Of a DNA stretch of 64,000 nucleotides, positions 23,701 to 51,800 are shown piece by piece. Below the pieces are notes generated by a model, which did no database searches, had not been told where the DNA came from, and saw only the letters and a list, made by a program, of their open reading frames with translations. The stretch spans positions 97,154,001 to 97,218,000 of the forward strand of contig OZ320314.1 of assembly GCA_976226885.1 (NCBI GenBank), read 5' to 3'. The stretch is from Iphione sp. A-MEVVRFRX5 (taxonomy: Eukaryota). Within the stretch, counting starts at the first letter, position 1. Each line of letters starts with the position of its first letter. Both the position numbers and the translations under genes were made by a program.

Positions 23701-26700
23701 AGTTGCTCCTGATACCCAAAAGGAACGATACATTTCCAGAGGAGATACAAAAAACACAGTTTTAGTAGATAAAAAGAAGGCCTTGTAATCGTGTAATCAT
23801 GTACTGTTTTGATTGGACACTGTTCAGTTTAAGAACTATATTATGGTATAACTATCTTCTATTTTACGTACACTGCCATGAATTTGATGTTATATACCGG
23901 GATAAATGAAGTAAAAAAGATGAAACAATGTAACCTCGATTTAAAATCCGAAACATTTATTCTGGGGTTGTACTGATGCCAGATATTTTTTTATTCTCAG
24001 ATGACTGCCATAAAGGGCATGCAGACCCTCACTGGCTCACTGAGGTAATTCTCCCAAGGAGAGTTACCCCGCGTCACCTCGAGCCCAACAATGTTAGAGA
24101 GACATTCCTACCTTCCCAGTAAAATTTGCATTGTTCAATATGGACGACCACAACTGCTCAGCGCCTTTCATCGGTCGACGAATGGGGGCCACATGTTGTC
24201 CAGTGGACGTAGTAAACCGAGCGGGGTTAAGCAATCCGGGTGCCACATTTTGCCTGTCCGCTCAACATTAAGGGCAGGAGCCGACGTCCGTCCCCATATG
24301 TGTGTGTAGGTGTGTGTGTGTGTGTGTGTGTGTGTCGGGAAAGGCGGGGGGTGGGGGGTGTGGCTCTCATGCACCTAGTTAACCGTCCACCCGTCCCAAC
24401 ATCCCTGTTTGCTTTGGGGAATTGGATTGGCCGGTCTTAAATTGGGATGTGTATAGCACGTTACTGTTGGGCGGTGTGGAGGCAGTCGGCGCTGTTCGCT
24501 CATGGCTTCTGTTGTGGCTTCCAGTCTGGCTTCCTTGCTCGGCCGTCCGCCGCCGCAGGTTTGCTTTGCTCGCATAATTGCGATTGTCAATTCGCTGCGG
24601 CGGAAGGGAGGGAGAAAAAAGCACTTTCTAGAAGATCACGGTGTTTCGCCTTTCCCCAACGCTGCAAGGTGATGGATGATTGGATGAGCAATCAGAGGGA
24701 AATCGAACTGATTAGAACGTGGTACGGATTGAGTTAATGTTACTCTTTGGTTTTCTGGCTTTTGACGTTTTAAGGATCTAGCCGTTGGATGTTATATGAA
24801 GCAGGAGTAGATAGAGAAGAGAGACAGAAAGAAATATAGCCAAAGATATGGAGAGAGAGGGGGGAGAAAAAGAGGACAAAAAACACGTAGTTCTAAACAA
24901 CTACATTTATTTATAATGTGTAGCTTTAAAATTAAGCGACATTTCACAGTTATCGACACGAGAATATTAAAGGAATCCTATTGCCTTTCAAACAAAATCT
25001 TGCACTAAGCTTATTAATACTGACGCCTTGACAACAAATGAAGACTACTAAAAAACAGCGCCATAGGCTCCATGAAAGTGGCTCTTAAGAGGCACTTTTT
25101 AGCCTTCTGATCAGCGTGCAGAGACTCCGATATGGTAGCCGTAGGCGCAGTTACTGCCTCAAAGCCCACTCTACTTACAGCTTTCCATTGTGCGATGTAA
25201 TGGCCCTCCACTGGTTCTCGCTCTACAGCTGACAGACCTAAAAACCCAATAACACTCCATAGAATGTCGCCTCTCGGCACCAGCAACATACGTCACGTGA
25301 CGCAGACACGCCTCCATTTTTCTCCTTTGTGATGGTAACAACATCAAAATATATTTTAAGCTCACCGCGCTAATCCTTTGGTCTACGGCGGAGACACAAT
25401 GACTTGTTTATTTTCTTTTCAATATTAAATCATCGCGAGACCCAACCCATACCTTCCCAATTTCAGTCGGTTAATTTTGAAATTAAGATAAACTGGTTTT
25501 CGGCGTACATTTTATCTTTATTTTATATTCACTATGTAGTACATGGCTAATCAGACTGCTGTTTTTTTATTTCATATTCATAAGCAGTGAAAACTCTCGC
25601 GGATTTTTGTAGACCAGAGAATGTTATGTTGCGATTTGAGCCTGAAAAATTACTTAATAGCTCCCTTCAGTTTTTCGAACATTCTGTGCGTATAAATCAA
25701 GACGAAGGATAATTTGATTTACGTCCGCTTTTTATTTTAGTTAGATTTAGGCAGGGGCTCCATGGGCAAAAGGCCTGCTCTTTAAATTTGCTTTCAATAG
25801 AACTCAGATAAATTTCAATCGAAGTCAGCAGGTCTAGGAGGAGAAAAGAGACCGACAGACGGCTGGGAAAGAGAAATCCATAGACGCACCGGGCATGCAC
25901 ACAGGACACTATTTACTCCGAAATTACCAAGTGACATTCTGATTAATGGATGCCGGCCGTATTGACAATGGATGCTCCCATCCATCCCTCTGGGTGGCGG
26001 AAGGAAGTCGAAGCGCGCATACGCTGATAAAAATGGAGGTCACCAACTCTCGTGTGAGGCCGCGAGAACTGGTGTTAGGTCGTCCCTGGGAGCGTGACCC
26101 GGAAACGGAACCACAGCACCATTTTCTGCTCGTCGAAATGTTCAGAGGAAATAGGAAGGAGGGGGGAATTTGCAAAGGGGATGGATAAGACGAAATTCCT
26201 TCAATCTTTATTTTTGTCAGCTATCTTGTGCGGTCAAACTGACACGCAACCGTCTGTAACACCTAATTCTGTTCGTTACCAGAGAATCTTATTCTGAGGG
26301 GGAGGGGGTTCTTGTTGTTTTCAGACGGCAAATGACAGCTGTGACTTCTGCCTTATATGTACATCGTCTGTGTTGCAGATAATCCAAGGTAATACCAACA
26401 CGTACATAGCGGAGCTGAGGGAGGTCGACCCTCCTATCATTGCCCGACGAGTACGGTTCATTCCTTACAGCAACCACCCGCGGACGGTATGCTTGCGAGT
26501 GGAGCTATATGGATGCCCATGGAAAGGTATGTAGATGAACCAGCATCCGCTCACATTATTCCTCCGCTCTACTGCAATAGAAAAGATTTATCGAGCAAGT
26601 TCCGGAATCCATCTTACGAGTCCCCAAAGTGTGATTCCTTTTTTTTTTTATTCTGCAGAGGGTGTTTTTAGGTTTCGGATGTATCCTCGAGCAATCTGTT

Positions 26701-29700
26701 TTCCAATTTGCAGATGGGAGCGTCTCCTATTCGATGCACCAGGGAGAACGGCGAGGGACAGAAGTCGACCTTTATGACTTCACATATGATGGCACGGTAT
26801 CTGACTATCAACTAACCGGCGGCCTGGGCCAGTTGACCGATGGAGAACTGGGAGAGTCAAATTTCCGTCTTGACCCAAAGGGCTTTGGCATTAAGGGTTA
26901 TGAATGGGTAGGCTGGAGGAATGAATCCCATAATGGTAAAGCCATTGAAATCACTTTCAAATTTGATGACGTGAGGAATTTTTCCAACATACGTATCCAT
27001 GCCAACAACATGTTCAGCAAGGACGTTCGAGTGTTCAAAGGTGCAAAGCTCTACTTCAGTATCGGAGGGGAATACTTCAAAAATGAGCCCATCACCTACT
27101 GGTATATGAGAGACACCCTGATAGAATATGCTCGCCAGGTCACCATTCCTGTACCTAACTTAATTGGACACTATGTCAAGATACAGCTTCTCTTCGATGC
27201 CAAATGGATGATGATAAGCGAAATCCAGTTCGAGTCAGGTAGGCCTAAATTGGCATTCTCATTAGAATTACCAAGTTGTAGGCGGACGTTTTCTGAATGC
27301 AATTTAAGTCGACATCCAACGTTTCCCCTGTCGATGAATTGATTAAAGTCCCCATGATTAAAATTCAAATTAGCTTCCAATTGACGTGATGCACGCTTCG
27401 TAGTCGGATTTAAAGCAATTGAATGCAATTTCACCGACTTTCTACTGCGACAATGCGCAGCATAATCCAAAGAGAAAGAAATCGTGCCTTTCCACCACCG
27501 CTACCATTACCAGTGCTCCCGCAAGTGCTAATTCTGGACTTCGCTGTTTTGTTGTAGAATATGCGGTGGGGAATTTCACCCCGGAGGTTCCGCCGTCGAC
27601 AATACAGCCACCGGGGGCCTCTACAAAGGATGCCAATATTGTTCAAGTCATCGATCTCTTGCCGAACGGCAAGCAGAACAAGACGGTCGGCTCGCGTAAA
27701 GTACATCCCACCTACGGTAAGACGGCCTTCTATCTTCCCCTCTTCCTACTACTCCTCTTTCTACTACTACTCCTTTTTCTCCTGTTCCCTCTTCCACCTT
27801 TCTGTGCGTCCTTCACGACAAGTCCGCTCCCAGTCTCTTGCCAAACCCTCATTCTTGAGACTCCTCAGAGCACCCCACATCCAAACATCTGGCTTGACGT
27901 CCAGCATCGTTTCCCACCTCTTTGAACAGGAAAGCTCGTCAGTTTGGATAGGCTGTAGGGTCCTTCTGACACCATTTTAGAGGAACCATCATCCACAGAC
28001 CTAGGATGATATCCGGAAACCCGAATGAAACTGAGGGGAAAAAAGGTTCTCCTTTAATCGTTCCATCAAACATTGAATTTCCCTTATCGACCAAAAGCTT
28101 GCGTGTCACTCGCATTTCTGTATTTGCCGTTTGAGATTATAGGAAGCAGCCTGGGAATATGATTCCAAATCTATATAGGGATGAATTGATTAAGGATCCC
28201 GATAAATTAATTCAATGCAACTAGTCTGACAAAGTTATCACGGGCATGTGTAAAACGATTCTCAGTATGGCCTTTTACACAGTTATAGTATCCCAGGCCT
28301 TAAACAGTTTTATGGATGTTAAATTGAAAAGGGGAGACCGAATTTCACTTTGGATTAAACAAAGTAATAGGAACGAGAAACGTAATCACAGCAACATTCT
28401 AACTAAGGAGTAACCCAAGAATGCATGAATAAGTTCTATGACTGGGAACGCGGGATCCGTATTCTTGATGAATTGCGGATTAACGTGTACATGTGAGTTT
28501 CCCCTATTCACACAAGGGACCTGCCCGCTGTCTCAAAAGAAAGACAGCAGTGCGGTACGTTGTACACAGTGTAATTAGCACAACATGGTGACTTTTATTA
28601 CAGACGAGGCGGACGCGGGCGGATCGAAGTCGACGACGACGATGGGCTCGGCCGGCGCCGAGGGCTCGCAGACGGAGAGGGAGAAGAAGGCGCTGGACGA
28701 GGAGTACATCGGCATCATCATCGGAGCCCTGGCGGCGCTCATCCTGCTGCTCTTCCTGGTCATCGTCATCATCATCATCCGCCAGCGACACCGCAAGTCC
28801 AACAATAACCACCAGGCGCTCATTAAGTCGTCCATTGTGCCGCGACATGTGACTCTTGACCTGAATGACCTTCAGGCCAATCAAGCTAATGGTAAACGAT
28901 CCGTACACGACATCCGTTTAGCATATGTTATGTCTTATTCCTGATCATTCACGGTGCAATTTGGTATGTAAATGGTCGTTAACTGGTAATTATTTGTACA
29001 TGTAGATATAACATATTCAGAAAGGTTAGCGCAAGTTGAACCCTTACCATGGTCAGAGTAGTGTGGAGATTATGATAGTTCAAATTCTTTAAATTCCCTG
29101 TCATGGAAAACGCGGTATTCTTGGCGGTAGAAGACTGTAAATAGCCAAGATCTAAAATACACGGATAATCGCCGACTTTTTGTGTCTTGAGTTTACTAGT
29201 GATGTAGAGCCCTCATCTGATTCGACCCTGTTGGACACATTTCAGAAGCGACTCTGTCACGGGAATATGCAGTGCCAGATATCACCAAGTCGTCCTTTGG
29301 TCAGATGCGACCTAACATCCCACCCCCTGCCTATAGCCCCAACTTGTACGCTGGGGGTGCCACCACAGCTCTGCCCTTGTCTGGTGCTGCGTCGCACTAT
29401 GCTGCGGCAGATGTGGTCAACATCCCCAACATTCAGGGTGTGTCTGGCAGCAACGTCTATGCCGTTCCCAATGGCGATCTCTTGTGGACCGAAGATTTGT
29501 CTGTCATGGAATTCCCCCGAGAGAATCTCAAATTCATTGAGAAGCTCGGAGAGGGACAATTCGGAGAGGTAGGTACCATTCCTTCAGAAAGATGATAGCG
29601 GCATAATGTGTTTTAAATCCACCCATGTGTATATCTATTGGCGTACCTTCTAATTGTTGTATAGTACTAAATACCATGACATAATTTGGGGGAGTTAATC

Positions 29701-31845
29701 TATGAGCTGAATACCAATGCCCCTCGGGAATGGATTATATTAGTCCATGGAAAAGGTAAGGTACTTAACATAATGGACATTTCCATCTTTTGACAACAAG
29801 AATTCATTTCGTAGCTCTCATGAGCTAGTGTCTTCTACATTGCTGCCCCTAGCAGGAACACTTCGGCCTTTACTAAACTTTCGCTATCAAACACACATTA
29901 GGTTCACTTGTGTGAGGCGCAGCACATGACAGACTTCCTCGGTGATGACTTCCTCTTAAACCGTACCTCTTCGGGCAACTCAATGCTCGTTGCCGTGAAG
30001 ACACTTCGTCGAAATGCTGACCAATCTGCAAGGTACGGAACTTGAGAGTTCTAGTTGTGGTTCCAGGTTAGAAGTATATGGCGAATAGGGTTGGAATGTT
30101 AAGGCCTAATAACGAACTAAAAGGGTGTATATACAGACCTTTAAACTAAAAGGTCTAACAAGAAAAAAATAGTGTCTTTGAATGCAACATGTGCCACAGA
30201 AGCACGTGTATGTGTCGCTGAGATAGATACAGACGCCAAATACATGTAAATTTGCTCTACAGAGAGATTTGAAGTAACAAACTTGGGCAGGTGTTCATTA
30301 ACACATGTTATTCTCTACTTTTTACCTTCAGAGATTCAAAATAGATTTTCTCAAAAACTACCACACACGGGTTACATAATAAATAACATAGAATTTGGCG
30401 ATGCGTAAATATCAAGCAATTGTGAGGGGGGACGCATCGCGATCACACGTATTCGAGCATTTTATGTAATTAAATAAGCAGTTCCATCGAATAAATGTAG
30501 ATGTAATAGTGGAATGAATTGCGGATGGTAAGAGTTTAGGGAGCAAGTTGGTTAATGCGTGAGGAGGTCAAAGTGCAAATCATACTGTTCTTCCTATCGT
30601 TGCCTGTATTACGACACTGGTTTTATTCGTCCTTGTCATTTCTAGGACCGACTTCCAAAAGGAGGTTAAGATAATGTCTCGCATCAAAGACCCAAACATC
30701 GTCCAGGTACTTGGTGTCTGTACTCGAGATGACCCGTTGTCTGTGATCGTGGAGTACATGAAATTTGGGGACCTGCATCAGTTCTTAGAGCAGCATGTGG
30801 GTGAAAACACGACACCGAAGAAGAAGCACACAAAAACTCTCAGGTGATTGGATGTATACAGTTATTAAGAAAAAAAGACTTTGTGTAGGGCTCCGATGAT
30901 CATTCATCGAAATCATTATACCAGTTCTTGTAAGTTGTCCATTAAAGCCGTTTACCTTGATAGTAAATAGCAGACAAATAAATAAATTAGCAGCGGATTT
31001 TCATTTACTCTTTCATTAAGCAATAAAGGTTTGTTTTCTTACCTGGAACATCCTTTGCTTGAAGACTTCTGACTGAGACTCTTGGTTTTTCTAGTCGTGG
31101 CGGCCTTGTCTACATGGCGACGCAAATTGCCTCTGGCATGAAGTACTTGGAGTCTCTCAATATGGTTCATCGTGATCTGGCTACCCGTAACTGTCTCGTG
31201 GGTCATAACTACTGCATCAAGATCTCTGACTTCGGAATGAGCCGGAACCTGTATAGTAATGATTACTACCGCATTGAAGGAAAAGCAGTCCTTCCTATTA
31301 GGTGGATGGCATGGGAAAGTATCCTATTGGTAAGTTTGAGCATAGTAAAAGAACTGTTTTTTCATTATATCATTAAAACATGATATTAGAGGTAGTGAAT
31401 TTCTTTCTTTGGGAATGTATTGACACTGTCAGTTTTCTTTTAATGCAAAGACACCTATTTAAAAGCAATGCTAAATAACCATTTTTGAATCCTTTTTCAG
31501 GGCAAGTTTTCGTGCAAGAGTGATGTTTGGTCCTTTGCTGTGACTTTGTGGGAAATCCTTAACCTCGCCAAAACACAACCCTTTGACAACCTGACCGATG
31601 AGCAAGTCATAGAGAACTGTGGACATTACTACCGCAATGATGGACTGGAAGAATATCTGCCACAACCATCAAACTGCCAGCGTGAGATATACGATCTGAT
31701 GAAGGAGTGCTGGAATAGAGAGGAGATTCAGCGGCCGACATTCAGAGAGATACATATGTTCCTTCAAAGGAAGAACATGGGCTATGATCCGGTTCAGGAT
31801 CAGGCTACATATTCCACCAAAGGTGTCAATGTGCCTGTAGTATAG
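12896..31845 (+). CDS. DDR: Discoidin domain receptor tyrosine kinase, paralog A (5'-partial, 11 exons: 12896-13037, 22236-22325, 26379-26526, 26714-27238, 27558-27716, 28604-28891, 29246-29568, 29902-30032, 30646-30843, 31095-31329, 31501-31845)
   Basis: All exons are GT-AG bounded with compatible phases and join into an 860-aa open frame. Motifs: DS domain ([30 protein letters not shown]), DS-like domain, TM helix ([24 protein letters not shown]), [29 protein letters not shown] activation loop, [10 protein letters not shown]. Cannot be assigned specifically to DDR1 or DDR2. Confidence 0.95.
14660..14790. repeat. (GA)n microsatellite grading into (GACA)n
   Basis: Seen directly in the sequence. 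Confidence 0.95.
17461..17474 (+). promoter_or_regulatory. CTCF-like motif CACCAGGGGGCGCC
   Basis: Matches the CTCF core consensus; motif evidence only. Confidence 0.4.
22236..22325 (+). CDS. DDR: DDR-A exon, DS domain ([30 protein letters not shown])
   Basis: cttctttcag| acceptor and gag|gtaggg donor; 90 nt, matches DDR-B 46157-46246. Confidence 0.93.
22969..23099. mobile_element. Degenerate short TA-type MITE
   Basis: TA|CAGTCAACTCTC...GAGTCTACTG|CA with internal GAGACCAC/GTGGTCTC inverted motifs; shares ccagtcca...gtggtc with the 36962 element. Confidence 0.45.
24299..24335. repeat. (TG)n microsatellite
   Basis: Seen directly in the sequence. Confidence 0.95.
26379..26526 (+). CDS. DDR: DDR-A exon, DS domain end ([49 protein letters not shown])
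   Basis: tgttgcag| and aag|gtatgt; 148 nt; 42 of 49 aa identical to the DDR-B counterpart. Confidence 0.95.
26714..27238 (+). CDS. DDR: DDR-A exon, DS-like domain
   Basis: tttgcag|ATGGG and tcag|gtaggc; 525 nt, same as DDR-B 42781-43305. Confidence 0.95.
27558..27716 (+). CDS. DDR: DDR-A exon, stalk 1 ([14 protein letters not shown]...KVHPTY)
   Basis: gttgtag| and tacg|gtaaga; homologous to DDR-B 41730-41897. Confidence 0.9.
28604..28891 (+). CDS. DDR: DDR-A exon, stalk 2 + transmembrane helix + proximal cytoplasmic juxtamembrane
   Basis: ttattacag| and aatg|gtaaac; TM segment followed by basic RQRHRK. Confidence 0.9.
29246..29568 (+). CDS. DDR: DDR-A exon, distal juxtamembrane to kinase G-loop ([10 protein letters not shown]...GEGQFGE)
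   Basis: catttcag| and gag|gtaggt. Confidence 0.92.
29902..30032 (+). CDS. DDR: DDR-A kinase exon (VHLCEA...[15 protein letters not shown])
   Basis: cattag| and aag|gtacgg; 131 nt. Confidence 0.93.
30646..30843 (+). CDS. DDR: DDR-A kinase exon ([19 protein letters not shown]...[12 protein letters not shown])
   Basis: tttctag| and cag|gtgatt; 198 nt. Confidence 0.93.
31095..31329 (+). CDS. DDR: DDR-A kinase exon ([11 protein letters not shown], YxxxYY)
   Basis: tttctag| and ttg|gtaagt; 235 nt. Confidence 0.95.
31501..31845 (+). CDS. DDR: DDR-A last coding exon (kinase C-lobe, tail ...GVNVPVV*)
   Basis: tttttcag| acceptor and TAG stop; 345 nt. Confidence 0.95.
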   Translation, partial: GKFSCKSDVWSFAVTLWEILNLAKTQPFDNLTDEQVIENCGHYYRNDGLEEYLPQPSNCQREIYDLMKECWNREEIQRPTFREIHMFLQRKNMGYDPVQDQATYSTKGVNVPVV

Positions 31846-36337: not shown

Positions 36338-36682
36338 TTATACATATGGCGAGGTGGGGTTGTTTGTCTTGTGGTATGTCTTCTCCAACTTGGGATCATA
36401 TCCCATGTTTTTTCTTTGCAAGAACATGTGGATTTCCCTGAAAGAAGGCCTTTGTACTTCATCTCTATTCCAGCACTCTTTCATTAGGTCATAGATCTCC
36501 CGGGTGCATGTTGCGGGCGGAGGCAGGTAGGATTCAAGGCCATCGTTGCGGTAATAATGACCACAATTTTCAATGACCTGCTCATCAGTGAGTTCATCAA
36601 ATGGCTGCTCCTTGGCAAAGGTGAGAACCTCCCATAGAGTAACTCCAAAGGACCATACGTCTGTCTTTGTAGAGAACTTGCC
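36338..36682 (-). CDS. DDR: DDR-B last coding exon (tail ...NNPTSPYV*)
   Basis: cacctcag| acceptor and TAA stop; 345 nt; 81 of the first 97 aa identical to DDR-A. Confidence 0.95.
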   Translation of the reverse strand, partial: GKFSTKTDVWSFGVTLWEVLTFAKEQPFDELTDEQVIENCGHYYRNDGLESYLPPPATCTREIYDLMKECWNRDEVQRPSFREIHMFLQRKNMGYDPKLEKTYHKTNNPTSPYV

Positions 36683-39600
36683 CTGAGGTGAAGATAAAAT
36701 ATTGATGTAATCATCATCCAAGGCTTACCTTTAGTACATAATCACAAACGTTTTGCAGGCCACTTTGTGATATTGGCGAGGCATATACCCTTTATGCGCC
36801 ATCAAAGAAGTTCCATAAACAATTTTATCATATTGGTGGGACGTATGTTTAATCATAAATAATTGATTGTATATCTTCATTTTCGTAGAAATAGACCTAC
36901 CACAAAAACCATTCAACTATATTCTACACAAAACACATTGTTATAATGAAAAATCTGACTACAGTTGAAAACCTATTTGCGACGACCCCTCCAGTCCAAG
37001 CTAAAGTGGTCGTATTAGCGAAAATTGTCGCAATTCGATGTGGTCGCAAATAGGGGTTCGACTGTAGGGATTCCACTGTATTATCTTTCTCACATCGCAT
37101 CTTCGTGTGAATCTGTGCTTATTTGAGGAATATTGATGATGTCTGCAGTAAACTCACCAAGAGTACGCTCTCCCACGCCATCCATCGTATTGGTAACACC
37201 GCTCTGCCTTCAATACGATAGTAGTCATTGCTATATAAGTTTCTGCTCATACCAAAATCGGAGATCTTGATGCAGTAATAATTGCCGACCAGGCAATTTC
37301 TTGTGGCCAGGTCACGATGCACCATATTTAGTGACTCCAAATACTTCATCCCTGAAGCCATTTGTGTGGCCATATAGATTAGACATCCTCGGCTACAAAT
37401 GAAAGAACAAATAAATGTTGAAAACGCTGCAACTTTATTGCTCTTTGTGCACATGAAACCTGGCTATGGCACGGCAAGCTAAATGTGCTACCACGCGAAG
37501 CTACAACGAACACATTACTCTTTAGAAATCCAAAGAGAACTGTAATTGAAGACGTATACTGGATCACTTTTGGCATGTTCTTCCATACCTTAATTGCTTG
37601 ACATGTTTCTTCTTTGGGGTAGTGTTCTCAAAGACATGCTGGTGCAGGAACTGGTTGAGATCACCGTACTTCATATATTCAACAATCACAGATAAAGGCT
37701 CGTCCCTCGTACACACACCGAGCACACGGACAATATTGGGATCCTTGATACGGGACATTATCTTCACTTCCTTCTGGAAATCAGCTCTGTGGGGAAAGAA
37801 AACGACAGTAATGTTCACTGGTGTCGAACTGCCCTCTTATTAGAGTTCCATCTGCATTCATCATCAGAGATTCTCTGAAAGATTTTCCGGGCAAATATTG
37901 TCATCATTTGCATTTCTTGTCTTAAATAAAGAGAGAGCCAATACATATTTATTTTATCGACCTCGGAGTAAATGTTGCGAAAATTTCTAATCAAGTCTAC
38001 ATGTATATCATTGCTGTAGTGCATGTACAATTGAGTGCACTCCCTGCTGTGTTTAATCTACAGTATTGAAAGCAAATGTTTCACCTGGCATGTTGGTCAG
38101 CGTTGCGTCGCAGCATTTTCACAGCAACAAGCATAGACGTTGATGATGACGTCCTGTTCACGAGAAAGTCATCACCCAGCAAATCTGTTACATGATGCGC
38201 CTCACATAGGTGGACCTGGGTGAAAAAAAATACTTTTTGAGTATTCCAAACTTTGATGCTCATTTCAAGATACGCACACCTGCCATAAACAGGAGGACTA
38301 GGGCGTGAGGATAGTGGGCTTTACTTATATTATTTCCCAGTTTAATTTGTTCAGTATCACCCTATTCAACATTAATTACACTGTGACCATGTGCACATAG
38401 GTCATCGGTTAAGGCGGCAGTCTGGTAGTTCATCAATGGTCGGGTGCTACTGGACAGGGACGTGATGCACGGTAAATAGTTTCCATATCCTCTTTCCAGT
38501 AACAGTTACATGGAAGTACTCCACAGACGGCAGTTTGTTCACCATTTTAGTTTTCTAATAAATTAACGTTTTGTTTTGCAAACATCTTGCGGATCAATAC
38601 ATGCATGCTAACATAAACCATGGGCCCGACAATAGCATAGTTTATCCTTTTGCAAAGCTCACACTAAGGATTTTCTTTCGATGGAGTCTCCTGCCCGTGT
38701 CTCCAGGTTCTCCTGATAGGTTCTACATGCATATATTCGAACACAATCCAAAATATGCCTCACGGACCTGCAGGGAGAACCTGGAGACATGGAGGGGAAC
38801 ATGAAAATGGAACCTAAAAACACAGTGTTATATAGTAAAGACTTTGGCTCTCAGTCCCTTGTGTGTTCGCTAAGCTCTTAGCTACAAAAAGCCAATTAAA
38901 CCTCCTCTACAATACTCGATCCCTGGAGCCGTGTGCAGTGAGGAGTAGCACTCGTCCGAGTAATAGGTTACCTCTCCAAACTGTCCTTCTCCGAGCTTTT
39001 CGATGAACTTGAGCTTCTCTCGAGGGAACTCGATGATGGACAGGTCGTCGGTCCACATTAGGTCCGGGTTGGGTACGGAGTAGGTGTTGCTACCTGCAAC
39101 CCCTTGGATATTGGGTACGTTCACAACGTCGGCCGTGGCGTAGTGGCCCGCCGCTCCGCTGGAGGCGGCCCGCGGCCGTGGCAGGGTGGTGTGGTTGTAG
39201 ATGTTGGGGGTGTAGGTGGGTGGTGGAATGTTCGGCCGCAAGGTGCCGAAAGAGGACTTAGTGATATCAGGCACGGCATAGTCCCTGCCTAACGTCCCGT
39301 CTAGGTGAAATGTTGGGAAATGGAAAATAAGAAAAACTGAGCTCATGGGGATTATACTTCTACGTGTATGAGCTACCGGGAAGAAGATGTAGCAATATAT
39401 ATTCAATATGATTTACGTTACTGGATCGTACTTGATTAGATGAATATAAAATATAATACACAAAAGTAGGCGCCTTAAACCTAAGCTATAAAACATGCTT
39501 CGAAGTAAAACGTAGCTAGCAGGAGGGAAGGGGAATCCGTGCACCACTTAGGAAATATGTGCATAACCTATACATAAACCTTTAACACTACACCTAGTAT

Positions 39601-42600
39601 GTAAACAAAGGTAGCATTCCGCCATACGCCAATATGACATACCGGTTTTATAAAATTATGTGAATTGAGCGACCGACAAAAATTATGTGAATATAAATTA
39701 AGGCCAAACCAAGGGAATAGACGATCTTAAAGAAATGGTGTGGGTACAAGGTCAGATTCAGCCTTCGATTTGCGGACGCAAAACTCATGCTGTTGACTGC
39801 CCCCACCCCACCCCCACCCTTTAACCATCAAGCCTTACGCTAGCAGTGCACAAGGCCAGGCTATGGACGCGGTGAAAGGCCTGAGCCCAGGTGGTGCATG
39901 TCACTCCCCTTACCTGACGCCAGGAGCGGCAGATCGGGCAGCTTCCTCTGCTGAAGCTCATCAAAGGGGTTGACAAAGATGCCGCCCGCTCCGCCGCCGC
40001 CACCGATAGGGTCGCTAAGCTTTAGCACCACGCCCTCGGGAGCGCCTTCGGACGCGGTGGCTACAGTGTTGTACAGGTTGCTGCAGGGATGTTTACCGTG
40101 CATGAGGCCGCCGCCCGCGCCGCCGACGTGGCCGTCCGCACCGCCCAGGACACCGACACCGGCGCCCATGCCGCCCGCCTGAAGGTCATTGAGGTCGAGC
40201 GTGATATGGCGCGGCTCAATGGCCGTCTTCAGCGTCTGGTGGTTGTTGTTAAACTTCCGGTGACGCTGTCGGATGATGATGACGACAATGACGACGAAGA
40301 GAAGCAGAATGAGGGCCGCTAGAGCGCCGATGATAATTCCGATGTACTCCTCATCCAGCGATTTCTTTTCGCGGGAAGAGTTGTGCAGACTTCCGGTTCC
40401 ACTCCTAGTGCCACTTCCGGTCCCTGCAGTTCCTGTCCCGGTCCCGCCTGCGTTACCTCCGCCCTCGTCCCCGGAATACGTCGGTGATCGAGAACTCGAC
40501 TTACTCGACGGTGAGTTTATGTTATCTGGAATAGGAGGCCACAAATTTATTAATTTTTTAATAAGAAGAGCACCAGAAATGTGTATTAAAGCAGAACCCG
40601 GTGAAAGACCAGATCATAGGAAAGACCAGACAGGGGGACATTTTCCTTTGACAAGAGTATATCAAATGGATGAATCAATTATACTGTCCCAAGCTTAGTC
40701 TCCTACGCGAGTCTCGCCTATATTCTAAAAACAGATTGACTATAGTAAATGTATACATGTACTCTGAAACAATCATTCCATTCAAGCTATGTTAATTTGA
40801 AGGACAGCTTTAAAACAAATATTTCCGCTGAACTAGAGTTCGCATCTGTTATCCAACCTCGTAGGAACACTGTCTGTTCAGAGTTTTCCTTTTTAATCTT
40901 AACAATAAATTGTTCAGCGGCTGCTTTTAATTACAAATATTTCATGCACGGCCTCTTCAGCATATATCTATAGAATCGCCCTTCTTATATTTTATTGTAG
41001 TCTGTATAATGAATTTATTTTTTCAAAGAAGAAACATGCCGAGAGAAAAGTGATGAAATGAAATGAGACAGGAAAGAGGATGTTATTGACGCCAACAGTT
41101 ATGAGGTCTTTCGAATGAATACTACTGCTTATGAGAGAGAGTAACTTTATTCTTCATGCAACTCATTAGTTATTCAACTCTGAATTAACAGTGTACATAA
41201 AGTATCATAATATAGAAAAGAAATAGGGATTCTAGACGGCTTTTCTTGTAATCAACTATAATCTATTAAAATTATCTGATTCAGTTTGGAAGTCGTGACT
41301 GGAAAAGAATGCAATCAAACCTCATTAATCCGGTTTTCCGTTACAATCAATTTGGCTCAAGTAATGCATACTCCTGACAAAGGGAATTCCGGAGAAATGC
41401 AATATGACTACAAGTATACAGTATCAGAATTAGTACTGTGATACCTTCACTTATTTCGGAAAAATAACGAGGTAGGGACTGTGGCCTACTATAGGTGGAA
41501 GACGTTTTTGTACTGCTTCTAAAGTGTTAGCTTTTGTTGCCTATTTCTAAGGGGTTAACTATAAGCTTCTACCATAGTTGGGAGGTATTTGTTGATCCGA
41601 TTACTAAAGAGTTGAGTATCGAGCTTTCCATAGGTGGGAGGTGCTTATTGAATAACTATCTAAAGGGTTAACATAGGTGGTAAGATATTCAATCATCCCA
41701 TCTCTGAAGGGTTAAGCGCTGGGGCCTACCATAGGTGGGAGGCACCCGCCGAGAGCCGGTCGTCTTGTTCTGTTTGCCGTTGGGCAAGAGGTCGATGACC
41801 TGCACAACGTTGGCGTCAGCCGTGGTGGCGGGACGTCGGCTGGTAGGGTGTGGTGTCGTTGGCGCTACCTCAGCGCTAAAGTTTCCTACAGCATACTCTG
41901 AAAAGCGACCAAAACGCATCGTCAGCAGTGCTGGCGTAATAACGCAACCTTTAAAAGGTGAAGGCCACCAACGCATGTCTTGCTGCAATCACTGCTCACT
42001 TATGACGTGCTTTATAGCATATATCCATAACAGGTATGGTCGACTAGGATTATGTAACCATCCTTAGTAATGTTTGTAGGAGAATAAAGTACCTGACACG
42101 TATTAACTTATGTATGTCTCATGAACAAAAGACGTCAACGATTTCCATGTGCTTCTTTTCTGTTGTACTGAATGAAGCAGGGCCAACTCATATGCGCCAA
42201 CGATGCATTCATAAAAACAAAACGCAGCGACCCGGACTTCATCTTGTGGTGACCAGAAATCGATTCAGATTATGGCACCCCCCCTCCGCCCCAAATCGCA
42301 TTTTGGTGAGGTTAATCGTATCGTTGTTTTACGTCATGCCTCTAAATGAGTTGATTCGATATGGTGATCAGTGATCCGTTCTACGTTTTGCCATTTTGGA
42401 AAAATAAACTTCGACGTTTAGAGTTGCGGGAGTGAGCGGGAGGCGGTGCAAAAGCTCTTTTAATCAATAACAACGGCCGGCAACGACCAAATGTCACCAA
42501 TTGATGCGAATATTTATGGCGCAGAAAGCACGGGGAGATTTTGCCATGGTTCATAATGATAGAGTGTTTTCTGACCCTTATTGCAAATCATTATTTTTTT

Positions 42601-45600
42601 AATATGGAGTTGCTTATGGCAGCAGTCAGTCCCAACGAAACCAACAATTGGCCGGTTTTCAACACAAATAAATGGACCTCTGACAAAAAAAACACGCAGC
42701 ATTAATGCGAACATCGATACGTTCATATAAATACTTGTATGCGTGTTACAATAAAGCTGGGGATATTTTTGTATACTCACCAGACTGAAACTGGATCTCG
42801 CTTATCATCATCCACTTTGAATCGAACCACAGTTCCAGTTTGACGTACTTGCCTATCCTGTGCTGGAGAGGGATCTTCACCTGGCGAGCGTATTCTATAA
42901 GGGTGTCTCTCATGTAGCGGTATTCAATGGCATCCTCCTGGTAGTACTTTCCACCGATACTAAAGGAGATTCGAGCCTGCTTGAACACACGCACATCCTT
43001 ACTGAACATGTTGTTGCAGTGAAGCAGGATATTTGTAAAGTTCCTCACGTCATCGAATCGGAAGACAATCTGGACGGGTGTACCTTCGTGAGACTCGTTC
43101 CTCCAGCCTACCCACTCATACCCTTTAATGCCGAACCCTTTCGGGTCGGATCTGAAGTTCGTCTCACCCTCCTCCCCATCTGTCAACTGACCGAGGCCCC
43201 CCGAGAGTTTGAGGTTTTCAACATTTCCGTCGTAGGTGAAGTCGTGCAAATCCACCTCGGTTCCTCTTCTTTCGCCTTGCTCAGTATCATAAGCTACGAC
43301 ACCATCTAAAAATACATTTAAACACAGTGCTAAATGCGTGGGTTTTTATACACATACATATATTCATACCTATCATTATGATTTGTTAATATTGCAAGTT
43401 AACGAATAGACCGTTACTGTAGCATAATTTAAGAGGGTAAACTCCATGTCCGCAAGAAGAAAGGAATATTATTTAGAATGTCTAAAAGGTCAGTCTCGTG
43501 CTACTTTCGTGAATTGAAAGTATTTACTACAGGTAAAGAAAACTAATTACAAAATACTATAAAATAATCCCACTAATCATTAATACAAAGAAAACTTGGA
43601 AACCCTTAAAACAGACATTGATATTGTTGTTATGCTTATCTGACTACAACTGAGTGAATCAGGTTTCAAAGGGCTATTTAAAGTTTTTCTGTGATTAAGT
43701 ATTTGGCAAAGTCTCATTTTCCACCGAGTTGATGTCACAGCGGGAAATACGATACTGAAATTACTGCACGCACCTTTCCAAGTGCACCCATACACCTCCG
43801 TCCGCATGCAGACCGTCCGTGGATGGCTACTGTACGGGATAAAACGGATCCTTCGGGCGATAATAGGTGGGTCCACTTCACGCAACTCAGCAATGTAGGT
43901 ATTGGTGTTCCCTTGGAATATCTGAAATAGGAGGGAAACATGTTGATCGTACAAAGAAAGAGACGAGAACTGATACTGATTATCTAACTAAACTGATCGT
44001 CGTGTTGTCTTTAAGTAAGAGAAGCTTATAATACAAGCATGAAGCTTTAAAAACTTGATATGCTACGCACAGAATAGTATACAATAAAAAAGCCTTCATG
44101 TTCTGGTGTAAGACGTGTCCTTATTCCAATTTGTGATAATGTATTACTGAAAAAATAAATTTCATTCTATTTCAAGTCCCGACTGTCCTATTTCTCGTTC
44201 TGCACATATTTTGCAGCGTGGTCGCGCATTTTCCTGTGTCGTAGAACTGTTGTGTAAGTTACCATGTCAGGAATAACGGGTTTTACCGAACTTCCAGCCA
44301 CAGGGACATTATTATGTGGCTAATTTCGCACCCTCTATCGAGCAGGGTAAAAAGGGATCTAGATGACGGGTAGAAGTGACAATTACACGGTGTAGCAACA
44401 AGAAGAGCGGGACGAACAGGTAGAGAAAACGAAGTCCTCTTGTCGGGCGTGATGTGAATTATTTACCATATCGTGGCTGGCCTGCGGCAGCTTTTCACAC
44501 AGAAGGAAGCTGCTGGGACCACCCATCCCCCCCGGCCCCCAACCGCCACCCACCCCCCTAAGCCACCCGCCTAAAACGCCCGGTCATTACCGAAAGCAGA
44601 AAAAAGAATCCTCTCCCTAGCCCCACATGGTGAGTGCCCCTAGGCTATAGGCATGATTAATGTGGAATGAATGCTTCATGATGCCAGCAGGCATGTATAT
44701 GGTTATACGTTTGGCTCTAGAGCCGGAGCAGGAAGAGAACGGGAACTAGAATAATCTCATGCTTCATCTCAGACCGCCTCGGTCGTAAGATGCATTGTTA
44801 TGTCAATTAATTTTAGTACGAAACGATGTATCATTGAGGATGGGGGAATGGTAAGGCAAAGAATTCTGATGCCTGCTTCGATATTAGATACCCATGTACA
44901 TGCACATATACAGGTGTTAGCCATAACATGATTATGGCTGTACATGTACATCCTTTGATATGATATCCAGGTGATTATTGGTAGTATACAACAGGCGTGA
45001 TGACAGATTACGTTAACCAAGGCACGTGCATGATTTCGCCTTGGGGTTAACTTTCCTTGATATCACCCACGGCTGTCATAACTCTCCATGTCTACTGTGC
45101 ACTTCCTTCGCAGCGGCTTTGCAGTATAGAGGGGCGCATTCCCCGCTACACACCACAGTACCGACCTATCTACAATCTCTACTCGGGATGTTGCATGGCA
45201 AACGTGCTGTAGACTGGAAATCTTGCTGGCTTCAGGACTGGAGCTGCTCTGAGCAACTCGGGGAGCAGGTGGTGCAGGCGGTCACAGGAAATGGATTTGG
45301 CCGATTTTTCATCGCCACTTCCACTTGCAAGCAGTAAGGCAATAGTTGGCGACTGGGGGAATGGAGGAGGGGGTGGGAGTGGTAGGGGAGGGGGTGAGCC
45401 TGTGCGTGTAGTTATTTTTTTATCCCCATGCACCTCGTGCAAGTCTCTAGAGATCCTGTATTCGCAGGCAACAGGTGGACCAGGAGGGACTGATGACAAA
45501 TTTAATTAATGCCTGTTGGCTTAAGGACCGAGGAAAGTGCTTGTTTGTTCGAGTGAATTTTACTGGGCGGTGATAAAGGTAAACTACTTTAAGCTTGGAA

Positions 45601-48600
45601 CACTGTGCTACACAGTGGATAAATCTATTTTACGGGCGCCCACCTCTGGTGCTTACCTCCTCTTAGGAGTACGCCCCTTCTCTCATACAATCTATAAGTC
45701 CTCCATGTCCGACTACAATATTTTCAGTACAACAGATATGAACTCCATTCAAGAGCGGACTCACCTGAATATTACTGAATAAATATCCTTCAAGTCAATG
45801 TTTATAATCCCAAACACAACCATTCAAACACACGTGCTGTGTACAAAACTTCATCAGATGACAGAGCCAATGCGAAATATATTAGACAGCGAGTCATCCG
45901 CATCCACATTGCTTCAGAGAGGATTTCGAACTGCTGATGACCACAAGTAGAATCTAATAGAGACAGCAGGATAACCATTCATAATGACAGGTCCCTGTCG
46001 AGGACGTATTCGCTTTCCCCACGCAAGTAAGTACCCTCCAACAGTAAACTTGATAGACTGTGGAGCCCATATGTACCCTGGTAGGATTCGTAGCAGCTCA
46101 GGTCCGTAGAGACCGGTACATATTCAACAATCAAGGCTCATAGCGGCCAGACTTACCTCTTGACCCCGTCTGTTGTGAAATCTGAACCACTGTCCGCCTT
46201 CTTCTCGCTGGTACTCTAGCAAGTAGCGGTCTGCATATTCCTGACCCTAAGAGAAAAAAATACATGGTTAATAAGTTCTGCTAGTTTGAACAGCATGGAC
46301 CAATATGTATAGCAGTCATAAATGAACGAAACCTTTTTGATTATAAGTCAAGTGTAAATTCCGTACAGAGTGGACATCAATCAAACTGATGGCAGGAAAT
46401 AAACGTTGAGAAAAGTACAGAAATATAAGCTGAGAAACAAAAGATAAGTACCATTACACCCACATGCCTATCATGAGACAAAAGATTTTTTTCACCAACC
46501 GTCAAACAGACAGACTTCAGAGGCTCACACAACTCCTTTAATATAAAGCCAAGAAATGGGACAAATATTGGAAAATGCAAAAGTAAAACTGGTGCTGCAT
46601 GACAAGAGCCTTGCATCTGTGGTCAGACCTTAAGAGCAAACATAATTCGCCTCAGACGAGCATGAGCTCATACGCATGCTCTGTGGCGTTCTCTTGCAGC
46701 ATAAAAATGCTAGTATTGTCTCACTAAAGGTCCTTCACTATAATCTTAAACCACGTCTGTTTCCCCGAAGTACGCATATAAAACTGAATGTATGTAAGTT
46801 ATTTCAACCATTTTTCTAATCGCTTTCTAGCAGCTTGGTCGAAGAGATATCGCTCTCTCCTTATATTGTTTCTCACAACTTATCAATATGTAATGCGTTG
46901 GGAAAATATATATCAACATATCAACATCTATATACATATATATGATCTTTATTATGACCGAAAGCCTTTTGATGAAAAACTGCAGTACACATCGTTCTTT
47001 CTCCGAGGTATTTTTACAGCCAGGTCCGTCTTCTCCGTTGCCGCTTTTAGAGGGAAGGGGTCATCGTGCGGATGGTCCAAACGTGCGTGCATGCTAACGA
47101 TAAGGCCACTGAATGACCCTATGTTTCATGTCCTCAGCTTAATGTAAGCTTCAGTGTGCTGCACTATCGCCGTCCATCTTACCCTCTGGCTTGGATCAAG
47201 CCTCTCTTATTACGCGCACACCCTGTCATTTATGTAGTGGCCTTCATTAACACAGGCCGGCTCCACCATACTGTTTTATAAGGTTAAATAACCCAGCGTG
47301 GTGACTGAGAATTTACAGCCACTTGTCATATACTTTCCATTACGGTAAAGGGGAAAAAAGGATATCGCGGACCAAAGAGTTAAACATCAGCACTCGGGCA
47401 CAATGGCTCCTTTGAGAAATCCCTCACTAGATGGCAGCATGCAGGCCACTCACCCCAAGAGACCCATTAAACTTCCGGTTTCACGTCATGTTAAGTGGCA
47501 GAGGAATGGCGGCGCCTTCCCTCGGGGAGGCTGCAGCTGTAAGGATCGGGGCGTGCGGCGCGCACTATATGCTGCTCATTGACAAAAGCGACCGACAAAC
47601 ACACACACATGTATACATACATACGTACACCGTATGTCTGTCCTGTCAGTGGACACAGTTGCAATTGGGCACATACAATGAGACCTTTCCCCTTACTGAA
47701 AGGACATCACTTTTGGCATTCTTCTCGGACAAATACACATGTGGACAGTATAAGAATGGAGGAGAAAGGTGCCACTCATCTCAATTTCAACGAAAGGCTC
47801 CTCAAATATCGACGGAATTAAGCATCTCGATTTTCAAAGAAGGACCAACAATAACATCGGTGGTACAGTTGACAAAGGTAATGTCATGTAGGAGAAATAA
47901 AAATAATCTACACAGGAGCACAAGAGATACGAAATGAGGAAACATACATGGCAGGGAATGAAAAATAAAAATTAAGGCGAATACAGCTTTGGGGTATAAT
48001 ACTGACCTGTCCATTCCCGAAGCGACCTTGGGTCTCGACTAAGGAGATGACCTTGAGCTCCTGAAGGTCAATCTGAAGCCACTCGTACACGTCCTTGGAG
48101 ACCTGTTGCTGGGGACACCACGCCCCCCCGTTAATCTCCGTACGGATCCTACAACATCAAAGCCGGTCACTTCATTAGTGTGGATTGTAGTCCTGGGGCC
48201 CAGGGGGTTGTCTGGTGAGGAGGCGTCTGTCTGAAGGAGCACACGGGTGTGAATTTGTGTGTGTGCGTGTGTGTGTGCGCGTGTGTGTGTTTGACTCTGT
48301 GCATGCGCGTTGGTCATAGTCTAAATATTATACATAGTTTGTCCTTAGATGTGTGTGTATACTCCAGGTTGTCAATTTCCATCACATATGCCGGGAAATT
48401 TGACTCAGCAGCTGTACCAACTTGTTAAGCAACGTGGCTTTGGGAGTGCAATGGTTCCGTCCGTAAATTACAATTTGTGTATACTACTCACATGCAAAAA
48501 TAAAAAAAAATACCAGCGGGCCGACTCAAAGGTCAACGCCTTTGTTTGATCAAGTCAGAGGAATGGGAACATAGTGAGGCCCTCGTAATCATATACCTCC

Positions 48601-48800
48601 CTCGGGGAAATAGCTATGGCGTGAGCTGTTTACAGACACGAGTTACGGTCAGGAATTCGGAAAGTATATGTTGTTAATGACTGTCTTCACATACCTGCCG
48701 TTGGCGGGCCCCACGCTCTCCACGTCGTAGGATGAGCTGGAGGCGATGGCCTCGTCTGGAATCTCCCCCGACTGCATGCCGAGAGAGAGTCGGCATTGTG
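36338..48800 (-). CDS. DDR: Discoidin domain receptor tyrosine kinase, paralog B (5'-partial, 12 exons: 48800-48695, 48148-48007, 46246-46157, 43921-43774, 43305-42781, 41897-41730, 40525-39914, 39300-38972, 38215-38085, 37786-37589, 37392-37158, 36682-36338)
   Basis: GT-AG exons join into a 1008-aa open frame starting [15 protein letters not shown]. Domain order and kinase motifs match paralog A, and exon lengths of 142/90/148/525/131/198/235/345 nt are identical to paralog A. Confidence 0.95.
36962..37064. mobile_element. 103-bp MITE in the last DDR-B intron
   Basis: TA|CAGTTGAAACCTATTTGCGAC...GTCGCAAATAGGGGTTCGACTG|TA; ~21-bp imperfect terminal inverted repeats and a TA target duplication. 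Confidence 0.8.
37158..37392 (-). CDS. DDR: DDR-B kinase exon ([11 protein letters not shown], YxxxYY)
   Basis: tttgtag| and ttg|gtgagt; 235 nt. Confidence 0.95.
37589..37786 (-). CDS. DDR: DDR-B kinase exon ([10 protein letters not shown]...[12 protein letters not shown])
   Basis: ccccacag| and aag|gtatgg; 198 nt. Confidence 0.93.
38085..38215 (-). CDS. DDR: DDR-B kinase exon (VHLCEA...[15 protein letters not shown])
   Basis: cacccag| and cag|gtgaaa; 131 nt. Confidence 0.93.
38698..38789. repeat. Inverted repeat with perfect 16-bp arms (possible MITE remnant)
   Basis: tgtctccaggttctcc (38698-38713) pairs with ggagaacctggagaca (38774-38789). Confidence 0.7.
38972..39300 (-). CDS. DDR: DDR-B exon, distal juxtamembrane to G-loop
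   Basis: cacctag| and gag|gtaacc; 329 nt. Confidence 0.92.
39914..40525 (-). CDS. DDR: DDR-B exon, long Ser/Gly/Thr stalk + TM + extended cytoplasmic juxtamembrane
   Basis: attccag| and tcag|gtaagg; 612 nt; possible internal donor after 40097. Confidence 0.88.
41483..41741 (-). repeat. Degenerate ~56-bp tandem array (5 copies) overlapping a DDR-B exon end and donor
   Basis: On the + strand, (c/t)ataggtgg-like cores occur at 41490, 41573, 41629, 41672 and 41730, and ctaaagggttaa-like cores at 41519, 41547, 41604, 41660 and 41704. Confidence 0.7.
41730..41897 (-). CDS. DDR: DDR-B exon, stalk 1 ([10 protein letters not shown]...RRVPPTY)
   Basis: ttttcag| and tatg|gtaggc; 168 nt. Confidence 0.9.
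42781..43305 (-). CDS. DDR: DDR-B exon, DS-like domain
   Basis: tttttag| and ctg|gtgagt; 525 nt. Confidence 0.95.
43774..43921 (-). CDS. DDR: DDR-B exon, DS domain end
   Basis: atttcag| and aag|gtgcgt; 148 nt. Confidence 0.95.
46157..46246 (-). CDS. DDR: DDR-B exon ([30 protein letters not shown])
   Basis: ttctcttag| and gag|gtaagt; 90 nt. Confidence 0.94.
47425..47439 (+). promoter_or_regulatory. CTCF-like motif CACTAGATGGCAGCA
   Basis: Matches the CTCF core consensus; motif evidence only. Confidence 0.4.
48007..48148 (-). CDS. DDR: DDR-B exon, DS domain ([12 protein letters not shown]...[10 protein letters not shown])
   Basis: ttgtag| and cag|gtcagt; 142 nt. Confidence 0.94.
48256..48290. 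repeat. Imperfect (TG)n microsatellite
   Basis: Seen directly in the sequence. Confidence 0.9.
48695..48800 (-). CDS. DDR: DDR-B exon, DS domain start ([35 protein letters not shown])
   Basis: tttctag| and cag|gtatgt; typical discoidin N-terminus LGMxSGxIPD. Confidence 0.92.
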
Positions 48801-51800
48801 CTAGAAAGACAAAGGAGGAATAATTTATAAACCGATGCTGTAAACAACCCGCCGGCACCGCTTACAGGGTGGGACCCTTGAGTTCAGAGGAAAGTACATT
48901 GTGATCAAGTGAAAAAGTAAACACGGGTTAGCAAATGACAACCAGCGGTCCATAGCTGGAATATAAATAGACAGGGTCCCATTTCAACCCATTTAAATCA
49001 TCGCCCAAACCCAATTTTAGAAGTTGTCACAAGTCTTCGCCAAACGAAGAGGAGAACGTGATATGTTGTCTGTAAGGTCATAACCCGTAATATGACTGGA
49101 GATTGGAAAGCGTCGGTCTGACAGGAGGCCGAGGGGCTGGGCGGTCTTGAGCGCATTCCACAGACTGCCTCAACTTTTGGCATCACTTCTGGTTCTCCTG
49201 TATTGCATTACTGTGTTACCTTCTGCGTGCCAATCAGCACGTCATTTCCTATTAGCCTCCGAGCTGCTGCGCCGTTCGAAGGCACTGGTTATCGGCGGGT
49301 CAGGAAGTCCACCCGGGCTATCATCGCCCTGACACCGGATGCTATGTCACTTCCGCCCATAGTTATCCACATTCCCCGATAGGTGGCGGCCCATAAATAG
49401 GCAAGGGCGGTCCTCGGCAGCTTGGGCGGTCAGCCTGCCGTAATCAAAGTCTCAGAGGTGTCAGACAAGAGCAGGATGGGCACGGGACGTGAAGGATAAA
49501 ATATTTCGCGCCCACCCCTTGAACAGCCTGTTAGGGCGTGAAGGACAATTAGATTGTAGGTGGCACGCTAGACAGCCCATGGTCATCAGTATCTCTCATG
49601 TGTAGATGATTTTCATCACGCAGACTGGCCACTCTTTGATGTGAGGGGTGGGATTCCCATAGAAAAGATAATGAATTCCTACCCTCCCGGGACAGCGTAA
49701 GGCTCGACCTGACAGCAACAGGTCATGGTTGCCATGGCGACCTCTCACTAGCCCTCAGGTAGAGGCACAAGTCGTCAGACGTTGCTGAAGGCCGCGTTAA
49801 CGCTCCTCACATATCGGGATTCGGATATCCAGAGCAGTTTGCATTGTAAGCGTTTTTATTCGATGTCCTTCTTTTGCACACGCAAAGCGTAATAAGATGT
49901 GCGCCACGACGCAGCGCCATTGGCGGCAAATGTATAGCTCCGGACAAAAGAAACGTTATCCCTAAGTCAGCCCATTATGATATCACTGCATGAATCGATT
50001 TTGGCAATATGGGCGCCACATTACAGCTATGCTGGCTACTCGCTGGTGATGCTAGGAAGGGCTTCAATGCAAAATGGATGACGTTTGAAATATTGCATGT
50101 CTTCACATAATTATCTGAAGACATCTGAAAATTGTGAAAGATCTTTTGATCTCCTGGACCGGATTCACCTCCTCTCTTTAGAGAAGAACACTGCATTTAC
50201 TTCAGAGTTGGGGGTGTTAAAACCGCACCGTTGTATAGCATTTGTGTCAATATGTCACAATCGCGCGTCACAATCCGTTATCTCGGACTAAATCAGTCAG
50301 CACGGATATCACTAACATACATGATATCCATCAAAAGGCGGGCCAATTACGTGCTGCAGTGGTGGCATGTAACTCATCATCTCCGTCAACAAACAAACAG
50401 GTCCCATCAGGCTAATGACTTAAGGAAAGTTCTGATGCCAGAGGTATTGGCTTCCTGGCGTTCCCAGACGTCCTATCGAGTGGCCGCCACAGTGGCTGCC
50501 TATCGGTCCCCGTGGTGGCTGAGTGATTAATTGGAGCCGAAAACATTGCGATCTGAACAAGGTGGAGGCAGGAGAGGCCCCGGATGAGAGTCATTGTTCT
50601 TGTATCTGTCCTTTCGCTTCCTGCATCCCATGCCATCCATTACAGTCAAAACGAGGCTCCGGCAAAAGCGTTACACCGCAATGCCCCACGGGAGCATCGC
50701 ACAGTCAAAGGACCTGTGCTTGAGTTTCCCAGCCCAGCTTGGAGCAAACTATACATCGAATTTCAATGTCTCTTCATACCAAGTAGATTAATGCACTCCT
50801 TGCATGTATATGATCAAAGGAGGTGTACATATCAGCCGGAAATTACGACACCCTAGGGAAGTACATATGCCTGCAGCCCATCCACTCAAAAAAGTGATTA
50901 CATGTACATGCAGATGTATTTTATTAGCGGCGGTAAATGGCTAGAGCATTGATTGCTGTTATGACAATGTACGCTATAATGTGTTGACTGCACTGACATC
51001 ATTCCTTTTCTCTTTTCCATGGTAGTTCTTTTTACTTTTTCTAATTGTTTTGTAACTTAAATGTTGAAGAGACAAATTATGTGTCAGGCGATGTTTCATG
51101 AACATTTGATTTCTACAGCATTACGTGTACACAGAGAACAGAGGGAATTCATTGGGGAATGTGACATTTCCACAATCATATAACTCTCTTGCTATGATAC
51201 AGGGAGGATACGTCCTTGGAATACAGGTACACAGGTACAAATCTAGGCGTCGGCAGATTCTTCACTACAAAAGATTCTTCTATACAAAAGCAAAAAGCTC
51301 ATTGACAAGCTGCAGTCTGAATTCAACAGAAATTTAAAATTATCAATAATTGGAACATTGCGAACGCAAAGAAGTGTGTTATCTCTGAGGATAATGCTGG
51401 TGATCCAGACTGTGTGGGATAGAGTTAGGCAACAGCTGATAACGCTAGTGCACAGGCTAAAGGAGGGAGGAGTGTGGGCACTGACGATTTCAAAGGTCCC
51501 AACCAGATAGGGAAAGACACAAAGGCTAGCTTTAGAGAGACCAAGGAATGTGCTCTCTAAGACCTCATTTGTCTACTGTGGATGTACCTTGTGGAACTCT
51601 CTTCCAGAGACCAGGACATTACGACGGAAAATTGCTAGTATCAGACAAGATCAGATTGTAAACTTGTAGTCGCATCTATATAAGGTCATGCCAAGTACAG
51701 CTATTTACTGATGTTGATAGGACTTAGTGTTATAGTACGGGCGCTGTCCATGTTAGACTGCGAATATCTGCCCTTACTAATGTCAAGGATGGAGTAAATC

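Follow-up and report, generated by a model that had tools for sequence, protein, structure and literature searches.

A probable inherited alternative donor that would make a juxtamembrane segment optional in a DDR gene of Iphione sp.

The window, which is the whole stretch of 64,000 nucleotides that was analysed, contains two DDR genes, and one of them, DDR-B, raises the question whether a single exon is used with two different ends. In its long form the transmembrane/juxtamembrane exon of DDR-B comprises 612 nt (39914..40525, minus strand), with AG/GT ends and an open frame. It ends at a distal donor, CAG/GTAAGG (39908..39916, -; the slash marks the cut, and 39914 is the last exon base), which matches U1 at 8/9 positions. 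A further donor sequence, ACG/GTAAAC (40091..40099, -; last exon base 40097), lies inside the exon and matches U1 at 5/9 positions. It will be called site 1. The initial annotation had described this pair as CAC G/GTAAAC at 40097 and TCA G/GTAAGG at 39914, 183 nt apart, and all of its coordinates are right. Both donors are of phase 1, and each of them joins in open frame to the same acceptor (...CACCTAG/ACG, first exon base 39300) of the next exon (38972..39300, -), which extends from DYAVPD to GEGQFGE. The intron comprises 613 nt in the long form (39301..39913, -) and would comprise 796 nt in the short form. Between the two donors lies an optional segment of 183 nt or 61 residues (39914..40096, -), which can be removed in frame as had been proposed, with a translation identical to the one given before. 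An AG at 39372 (-), in frame and 72 nt ahead of the acceptor at 39300, also leaves the frame open and shows no sign of use.

DDR-B (36338..48804, -) was modelled with 12 coding exons, the signal-peptide exon being outside the model. The gene matches the Lineus DDR exon by exon and has the domain set of a DDR: Pfam PF21114 (DS-like domain) is found with 3.9e-67 (9.8e-67 in DDR-A), PF07714 (kinase) matches two kinase exons, and PF00754 matches weakly one exon of 49 residues. DDR-A (12894..31845, +) is an inverted paralog in tail-to-tail orientation, and the ends of the two genes at 31845 (+) and 36338 (-) are about 4.5 kb apart. From the DS exon at 26379 onwards the frame of DDR-A stays open as far as the stop, and the kinase motifs are intact; in both genes exon models with GT-AG ends are open to the stop, the catalytic motifs are intact, and one 15-residue peptide is found in both. 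The first DS exon of DDR-A was not found within the window. Its 5' introns are long, about 9 kb and about 4 kb (12894-22233, +), and the matching exons of DDR-B are much closer together. With the paralogs C and D, four DDR genes are present on one contig of this genome of 1.18 Gb. In a tree of 27 proteins DDR-A and DDR-B are sisters (100/100). The four paralogs group with the DDR of Capitella teleta with a support of 91/82, a node below the starred threshold, and the mollusc (100/100) and nemertean (100/100) DDRs form clades separate from this group. From this grouping the genes are probably those of an annelid. DDR-A and DDR-B agree in 77% of their residues, but their fourfold sites are identical in only 74 of 245 cases, and their duplication is therefore old. 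Three of the 12 GGT codons of DDR-B are shared with DDR-A.

The simplest way to account for the internal donor would be that DDR-B splices at 40097 only, as DDR-A does, and that the 183 nt are intron. The donor hexamer is indeed the same as that of the only donor of DDR-A. However, the stretch is open and exon-like in composition (GC 0.62 and GC3 0.70, vs a GC of 0.42 in the following intron), its homologs in paralogs C and D, like those in many relatives, are coding sequence, and it has a near-perfect donor at its conserved end. We have therefore rejected this reading, which is extremely unlikely. The segment is present in the DDRs of molluscs, nemerteans, and Capitella. In paralogs C and D it contains N-G-K, N/K-M-Y, Y-x-E-P, and R-x-L-P-x-L-P, followed by the long-form donor at the place equivalent to 39914. 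In an alignment of the transmembrane exon with 24 rows, hand-picked among the best of 93 matches, site 1 falls on a Gly-Lys column pair that is invariant in 24/24 rows, and the Tyr (Y100) and the Leu and Pro (L144, P148) of the proline motif are nearly invariant. The H-G-K of DDR-B aligns to the N-G-K of its relatives, with the usual spacing to the tyrosine motif, and a profile of 24 homologous segments gives 21.5 bits for the DDR-B segment. Because the segment is conserved coding sequence, the long form is likely the default, and the change by loss took place in DDR-A. The 61 residues are of low complexity. A PDB sequence search with them gave nothing meaningful (best E 1.3), and the transmembrane exon as query for homologs had no match among the longer proteins, where the next exon as query did match. 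The juxtamembrane exons of DDR-B (40100-40180, -) and of paralogs C and D contain Gly/Ala-rich low-complexity expansions that are placed differently around the conserved motifs.

The three motifs attributed to the segment are all contained in it. The sole tyrosine is in NLYN (40068..40079, -), which reads N-M-Y-N in most relatives. The basic PxxP motif, RKLPDLP (39927..39947, -), is kept in the alignment as RxLPxxP, which we take to be a class I SH3 ligand. The NPF (39963..39971, -) is followed by Asp-Glu and occupies the place of the relatives' Y-x-E-P, which presumably resembles an Nck SH2 site. The stretch reads V-N-P-F-D-E in DDR-B, so that the tyrosine is gone and a Phe is in its place. 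Among 34 representatives with both flanking motifs, NPF is found in one and Y-x-(E/D/N/Q)-P in 18. The NPF is therefore a feature of the B lineage and not of the family; P0016/P0214 have NPF, and P0017 has NPL at this place. According to PMC13282721, an NPF with acidic residues after it is the preference of C-terminal EHD proteins. The NPF-D-E of DDR-B fits this preference and makes the segment a candidate EHD-type ligand. A literature search for DDR1 Y484 together with Nck found no paper.

DDR-A provides the natural counterpart. Its transmembrane exon (28604..28891, +) ends exactly at site 1 with ATG/GTAAAC (6.1 bits) and lacks the optional segment, and the sequence resumes at the acceptor 29246; the exon end at AAT G/GTAAAC, with 28891 as last exon base, had been annotated correctly. 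The only plausible phase-1 donor before the frame closes is the one at 28891, the other GT being TCC/GTTTAG. The cytosolic juxtamembrane region comprises 137 residues in DDR-A vs 221 in the long DDR-B. A remnant of the segment in the DDR-A intron was not significant (84 of 300 shuffles scored as high), and a resemblance of the intron start to the DDR-B segment past the donor hexamer was dropped for the same reason. An A-type relative from another source (P0018/P0215) shows similarity that ends right after N-G-K, like DDR-A. It is likely that DDR-A ended with the short form only and has lost the 61-residue segment.

Whether DDR-B still makes the choice depends on how site 1 is judged. With a matrix trained on 33 donors taken from the four paralogs, which is a small and in-sample set, site 1 reaches 5.2 bits vs 11.4 for the distal donor and 6.1 for the sole donor of DDR-A. 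This is below every one of the training donors (33/33, the lowest having 6.0), which counts against its use, but close to the value for the DDR-A donor. Of 3257 coding positions in the four paralogs, 14 have an in-frame GT site with at least the score of site 1. GGT accounts for 63 of 326 Gly codons overall (19%) and for 6 of 38 in the DDR-B transmembrane exon, whose GC3 is 0.70 and in which GGC (21 of 38 Gly) and AAG (6 of 8 Lys) dominate. Taken as bare sequence, the internal donor thus appears only modestly more surprising than chance. Strong support comes from its position, because it is the site of DDR-A and of the mollusc isoform models described below. At the DNA level the site-1 codon is GGT in DDR-A, DDR-B, and the metagenome locus L009, GGC in paralogs C and D, and GGG or GGA in the bivalve-like loci L010 and L012. 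L009 was one of five loci obtained in a motif scan of metagenome contigs, of which three are DDRs and two are unrelated. It is a full-length spliced contig that groups with paralog C and contains AAT G/GTAAG at site 1 inside the long form. That C and D have GGC yet keep Gly-Lys means that the amino acids are constrained also without a donor, which weakens the case. On the other hand, DDR-A and DDR-B are saturated at fourfold sites, and the GGT-AAA of DDR-B is therefore not a passive carry-over. We estimate that its retention despite the saturation would raise the odds of use about five-fold, and no more.

The same data could be read as a complete partition of the splice forms: the ancestral choice was real, DDR-A makes only the short and DDR-B only the long receptor, and the GT of DDR-B is a relic or a chance codon. 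Such a split of isoforms after duplication is an outcome described by Lambert et al. 2015 (PMC4417111), the site in DDR-B is weak and has a very strong donor next to it, DDR-A already supplies a short receptor, C and D have lost the GT at site 1, and the chance of a GGT is about 16-19%. Counting against it are a GGT-AAA that has been kept through A/B saturation in an exon dominated by GGC and AAG, and a sole donor in DDR-A that has nearly the same sequence as 40097. We regard the complete partition as possible but rather unlikely. DDR-A does resemble the published cases in that a single ancestral isoform has become fixed in one paralog, whose exon structure differs; in contrast to them the partition looks one-sided, because DDR-B holds the DNA for both forms. 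Our preferred reading is that 40097 is an inherited, weak alternative donor that is probably in use and would yield a minor short receptor without the 61 juxtamembrane residues. The strong donor at 39914 likely gives the long receptor by default.

The comparison with other animals is based on a table of named isoform models from 25 species, for which 16 chosen clusters of homolog matches were expanded; Mya, a second Mercenaria paralog, Dreissena, and Potamilus were left out because their tails diverge or an anchor is missing, as were further matches with a single model and unnamed records. All isoform evidence in it consists of automated annotation models. Short models cut at site 1 exist in 9 of the 25 species (Patella vulgata, three Haliotis, three Octopus, Acanthosepion, and the chiton Liolophura), spanning Gastropoda, Cephalopoda, and Polyplacophora, and six of the nine have the long form as well. 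Only site-1 forms were among the retrieved models of three cephalopods. Since an intron must begin with GT, a cut at site 1 implies a GGT-AAR codon pair in the genomes concerned, as judged from the reading frame. The models of Patella vulgata (X1-X3), Haliotis (X1/X2), Octopus bimaculoides (X1/X2), Liolophura sinensis (X1/X2), and Lineus longissimus (X1/X5) have the same exon, phase, and next exon as DDR-B. The site-1 forms of the molluscs are cut at (N/H)/GK as in DDR-B, and the motifs lost with the cut are again N-x-Y-N and RxLPxxP. Unlike the Iphione genes, of which there are four with one fixed for the short form, the mollusc and nemertean genes are single-copy-like, and DDR-B differs from them by the Gly-rich stretch added before site 1 and by the NPF in place of Y-x-E-P.

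The position of the cut is not uniform. In Patella X2 and Lineus X5 the cut lies five codons past site 1. Scallops, oysters, Mercenaria, and Gigantopelta possess forms in which the first motif is kept and the 3' half of the segment or its proline motif is missing. Counting all cuts (site 1, five codons on, and later ones), a long form and a form without RxLP are found together in 15 of the 18 species with at least two retrieved isoforms; the exceptions are Tubulanus with long forms only, and Pomacea and Biomphalaria, which have none with the RxLP module. In oysters, 18-23 Logan contigs correspond to each short form and one to the long form. In the bivalve-like locus L010 (246-278, -) an intron directly follows the segment's first half, and the 3' half in Mercenaria-type genes is probably a separate cassette exon. 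The arthropod-like DDRs (P0084-P0106, P0150) break off after T-I-N-M-K and keep Y-Q-E/D downstream, with RKLP in one of them, and the break suggests a different intron position.

These models could also be explained by noise. Asn-Gly-Lys would then be kept for protein reasons, a drift to GGT would create a near-consensus donor from time to time, and the short models would represent unregulated mis-splicing. Gly-Lys is indeed kept without a GT in C, D, L010, and L012, the cut sites vary between lineages, and the models are automated. The site-1 models represent about five independent lineages, with more lineages lacking them, which counts against our preferred reading, and chance GGT codons together with permissive annotation could be enough to yield that number. 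Against noise are the fixation of the site-1 form in a whole paralog lineage (DDR-A, P0018), the three cephalopods with retrieved site-1 forms only, the many assembled contigs that contain oyster short forms, and the convergence of differing sites, in 15 of 18 species, on the loss of one and the same module. We consider noise as the sole source of the short models very improbable.

The initial annotation had proposed that the switch evolved independently in DDR-B. This part has to be given up, and with it any origin of the switch within DDR-B, because both site and segment are common to molluscs and nemerteans. The long/short choice is likely ancestral, old and shared, as far as gene comparison can tell. 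What remains of the proposed isoform switch is a segment made optional by alternative 5' splice sites, in agreement with ortholog models cut at the same codon and with the site used by DDR-A. A lophotrochozoan ancestor would already have made long and short DDR tails. After the old duplication DDR-A would have become fixed for the short form and dropped the segment, and DDR-B would have kept it and probably also the choice of donor. There the weak upstream and the strong downstream donor would compete, the strong one giving the long receptor by default, and selection of the weak one would produce a receptor with intact kinase that lacks the N-x-Y-N tyrosine and RxLPxxP. The segment itself could act as a docking module made of a conserved Tyr and an SH3-type motif, RxLPxxP, corresponding to the DDR2 pTyr481 region. 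Splicing would thus determine which adaptors are recruited and leave the kinase untouched. The loss of the Y-x-E-P tyrosine from DDR-B counts against our preferred reading as a whole.

The second part that does not hold is the homology to human DDR1a/b. The DDR1b insert is a cassette exon. It adds 37 juxtamembrane residues (505-541), including an NPxY with Tyr513 that binds talin, according to PMC8928223 and PMC5489314; Tyr484 is a separate phosphosite upstream of this insert (PMC4332414), and other deletions of exons 10-12 are described in PMC4789497 and PMC13681611. The outcome is analogous, since in both cases a tyrosine-bearing cytosolic juxtamembrane stretch is gained or lost in frame with the kinase intact (for DDR1 see PMC5489314, PMC8928223, and PMC4332414). 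The DDR-B segment has, however, one Tyr with NPF and NLYN and no NPxY, and it aligns to the Tyr481 region of DDR2; homology to the DDR1b insert is therefore rejected. The DDR1b insert lies downstream of Tyr484, whereas the choice of 5' splice site in DDR-B would, according to the DDR2 alignment, remove an upstream module. The 3' end of the profile of 24 segments aligns to YQEP..RKLP of the conger DDR2 with 2.5 bits in the whole protein and 6.0 bits in the isolated tail, the latter being equalled by one of 500 shuffles. Human DDR2 is phosphorylated at Tyr481 in the peptide DpYQEPSR (Table 1 of PMC3893797) and is described as a single isoform in PMC4332414, which makes the Tyr481 module constitutive in human DDR2. 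DDR-B has a Phe where DDR2 has the tyrosine. By alignment the DDR-B segment is a match to the constitutive pTyr481 region of DDR2 and so is not a DDR1a/b event.

If the choice is real, alternative splicing of this receptor tyrosine kinase would be conserved to great evolutionary depth, and the module around Tyr481 of vertebrate DDR2 would stand out as a unit made optional repeatedly in animals, which points to a function for a poorly defined site. With the A/B pair, nature would offer a test of how isoforms are partitioned once a gene has duplicated. The mechanism is not new, as both the use of alternative 5' splice sites and DDR isoforms that differ in the juxtamembrane region are already known, and the isoforms are already in RefSeq as unremarked models. 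No description of DDR splicing in invertebrates, annelids, or molluscs was found among titles and the beginnings of abstracts in a collection covering few subscription journals. Concerning invertebrate DDRs in general, activation by collagen was stated as unknown in 2013 (PMC4332414) and has been reported for C. elegans DDR-2, whose cytoplasmic domain binds SHC-1, in a paper whose corresponding part mentions no isoforms (PMC5161311). A much broader scenario can be drawn, in which a regulated switch extends through all Lophotrochozoa, governs the module present constitutively in vertebrate DDR2, was rebuilt at several sites in different lineages, and is half-partitioned between DDR-A and DDR-B, and in which a phosphotyrosine turned into NPF-D-E in DDR-B, so that recycling and not SH2 docking would be switched. 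This combination as a whole is doubtful.

A few features of the surrounding sequences deserve mention. Paralog D contains an in-frame donor of 8.0 bits, ACG/GTAAGA, at the second site (L007:9084), as in Patella X2 and Lineus X5, and this is a better candidate for alternative splicing than the DDR-B site. In paralog C (L005:781-822) the end of a kinase exon is repeated (similar to RWMGWESVLL) about 55 nt past the true exon end, possibly as a partial duplication or an alternative donor. A short tandem repeat at about 7700-7900 of the window is visible as repeated peptide text in the open reading frames.
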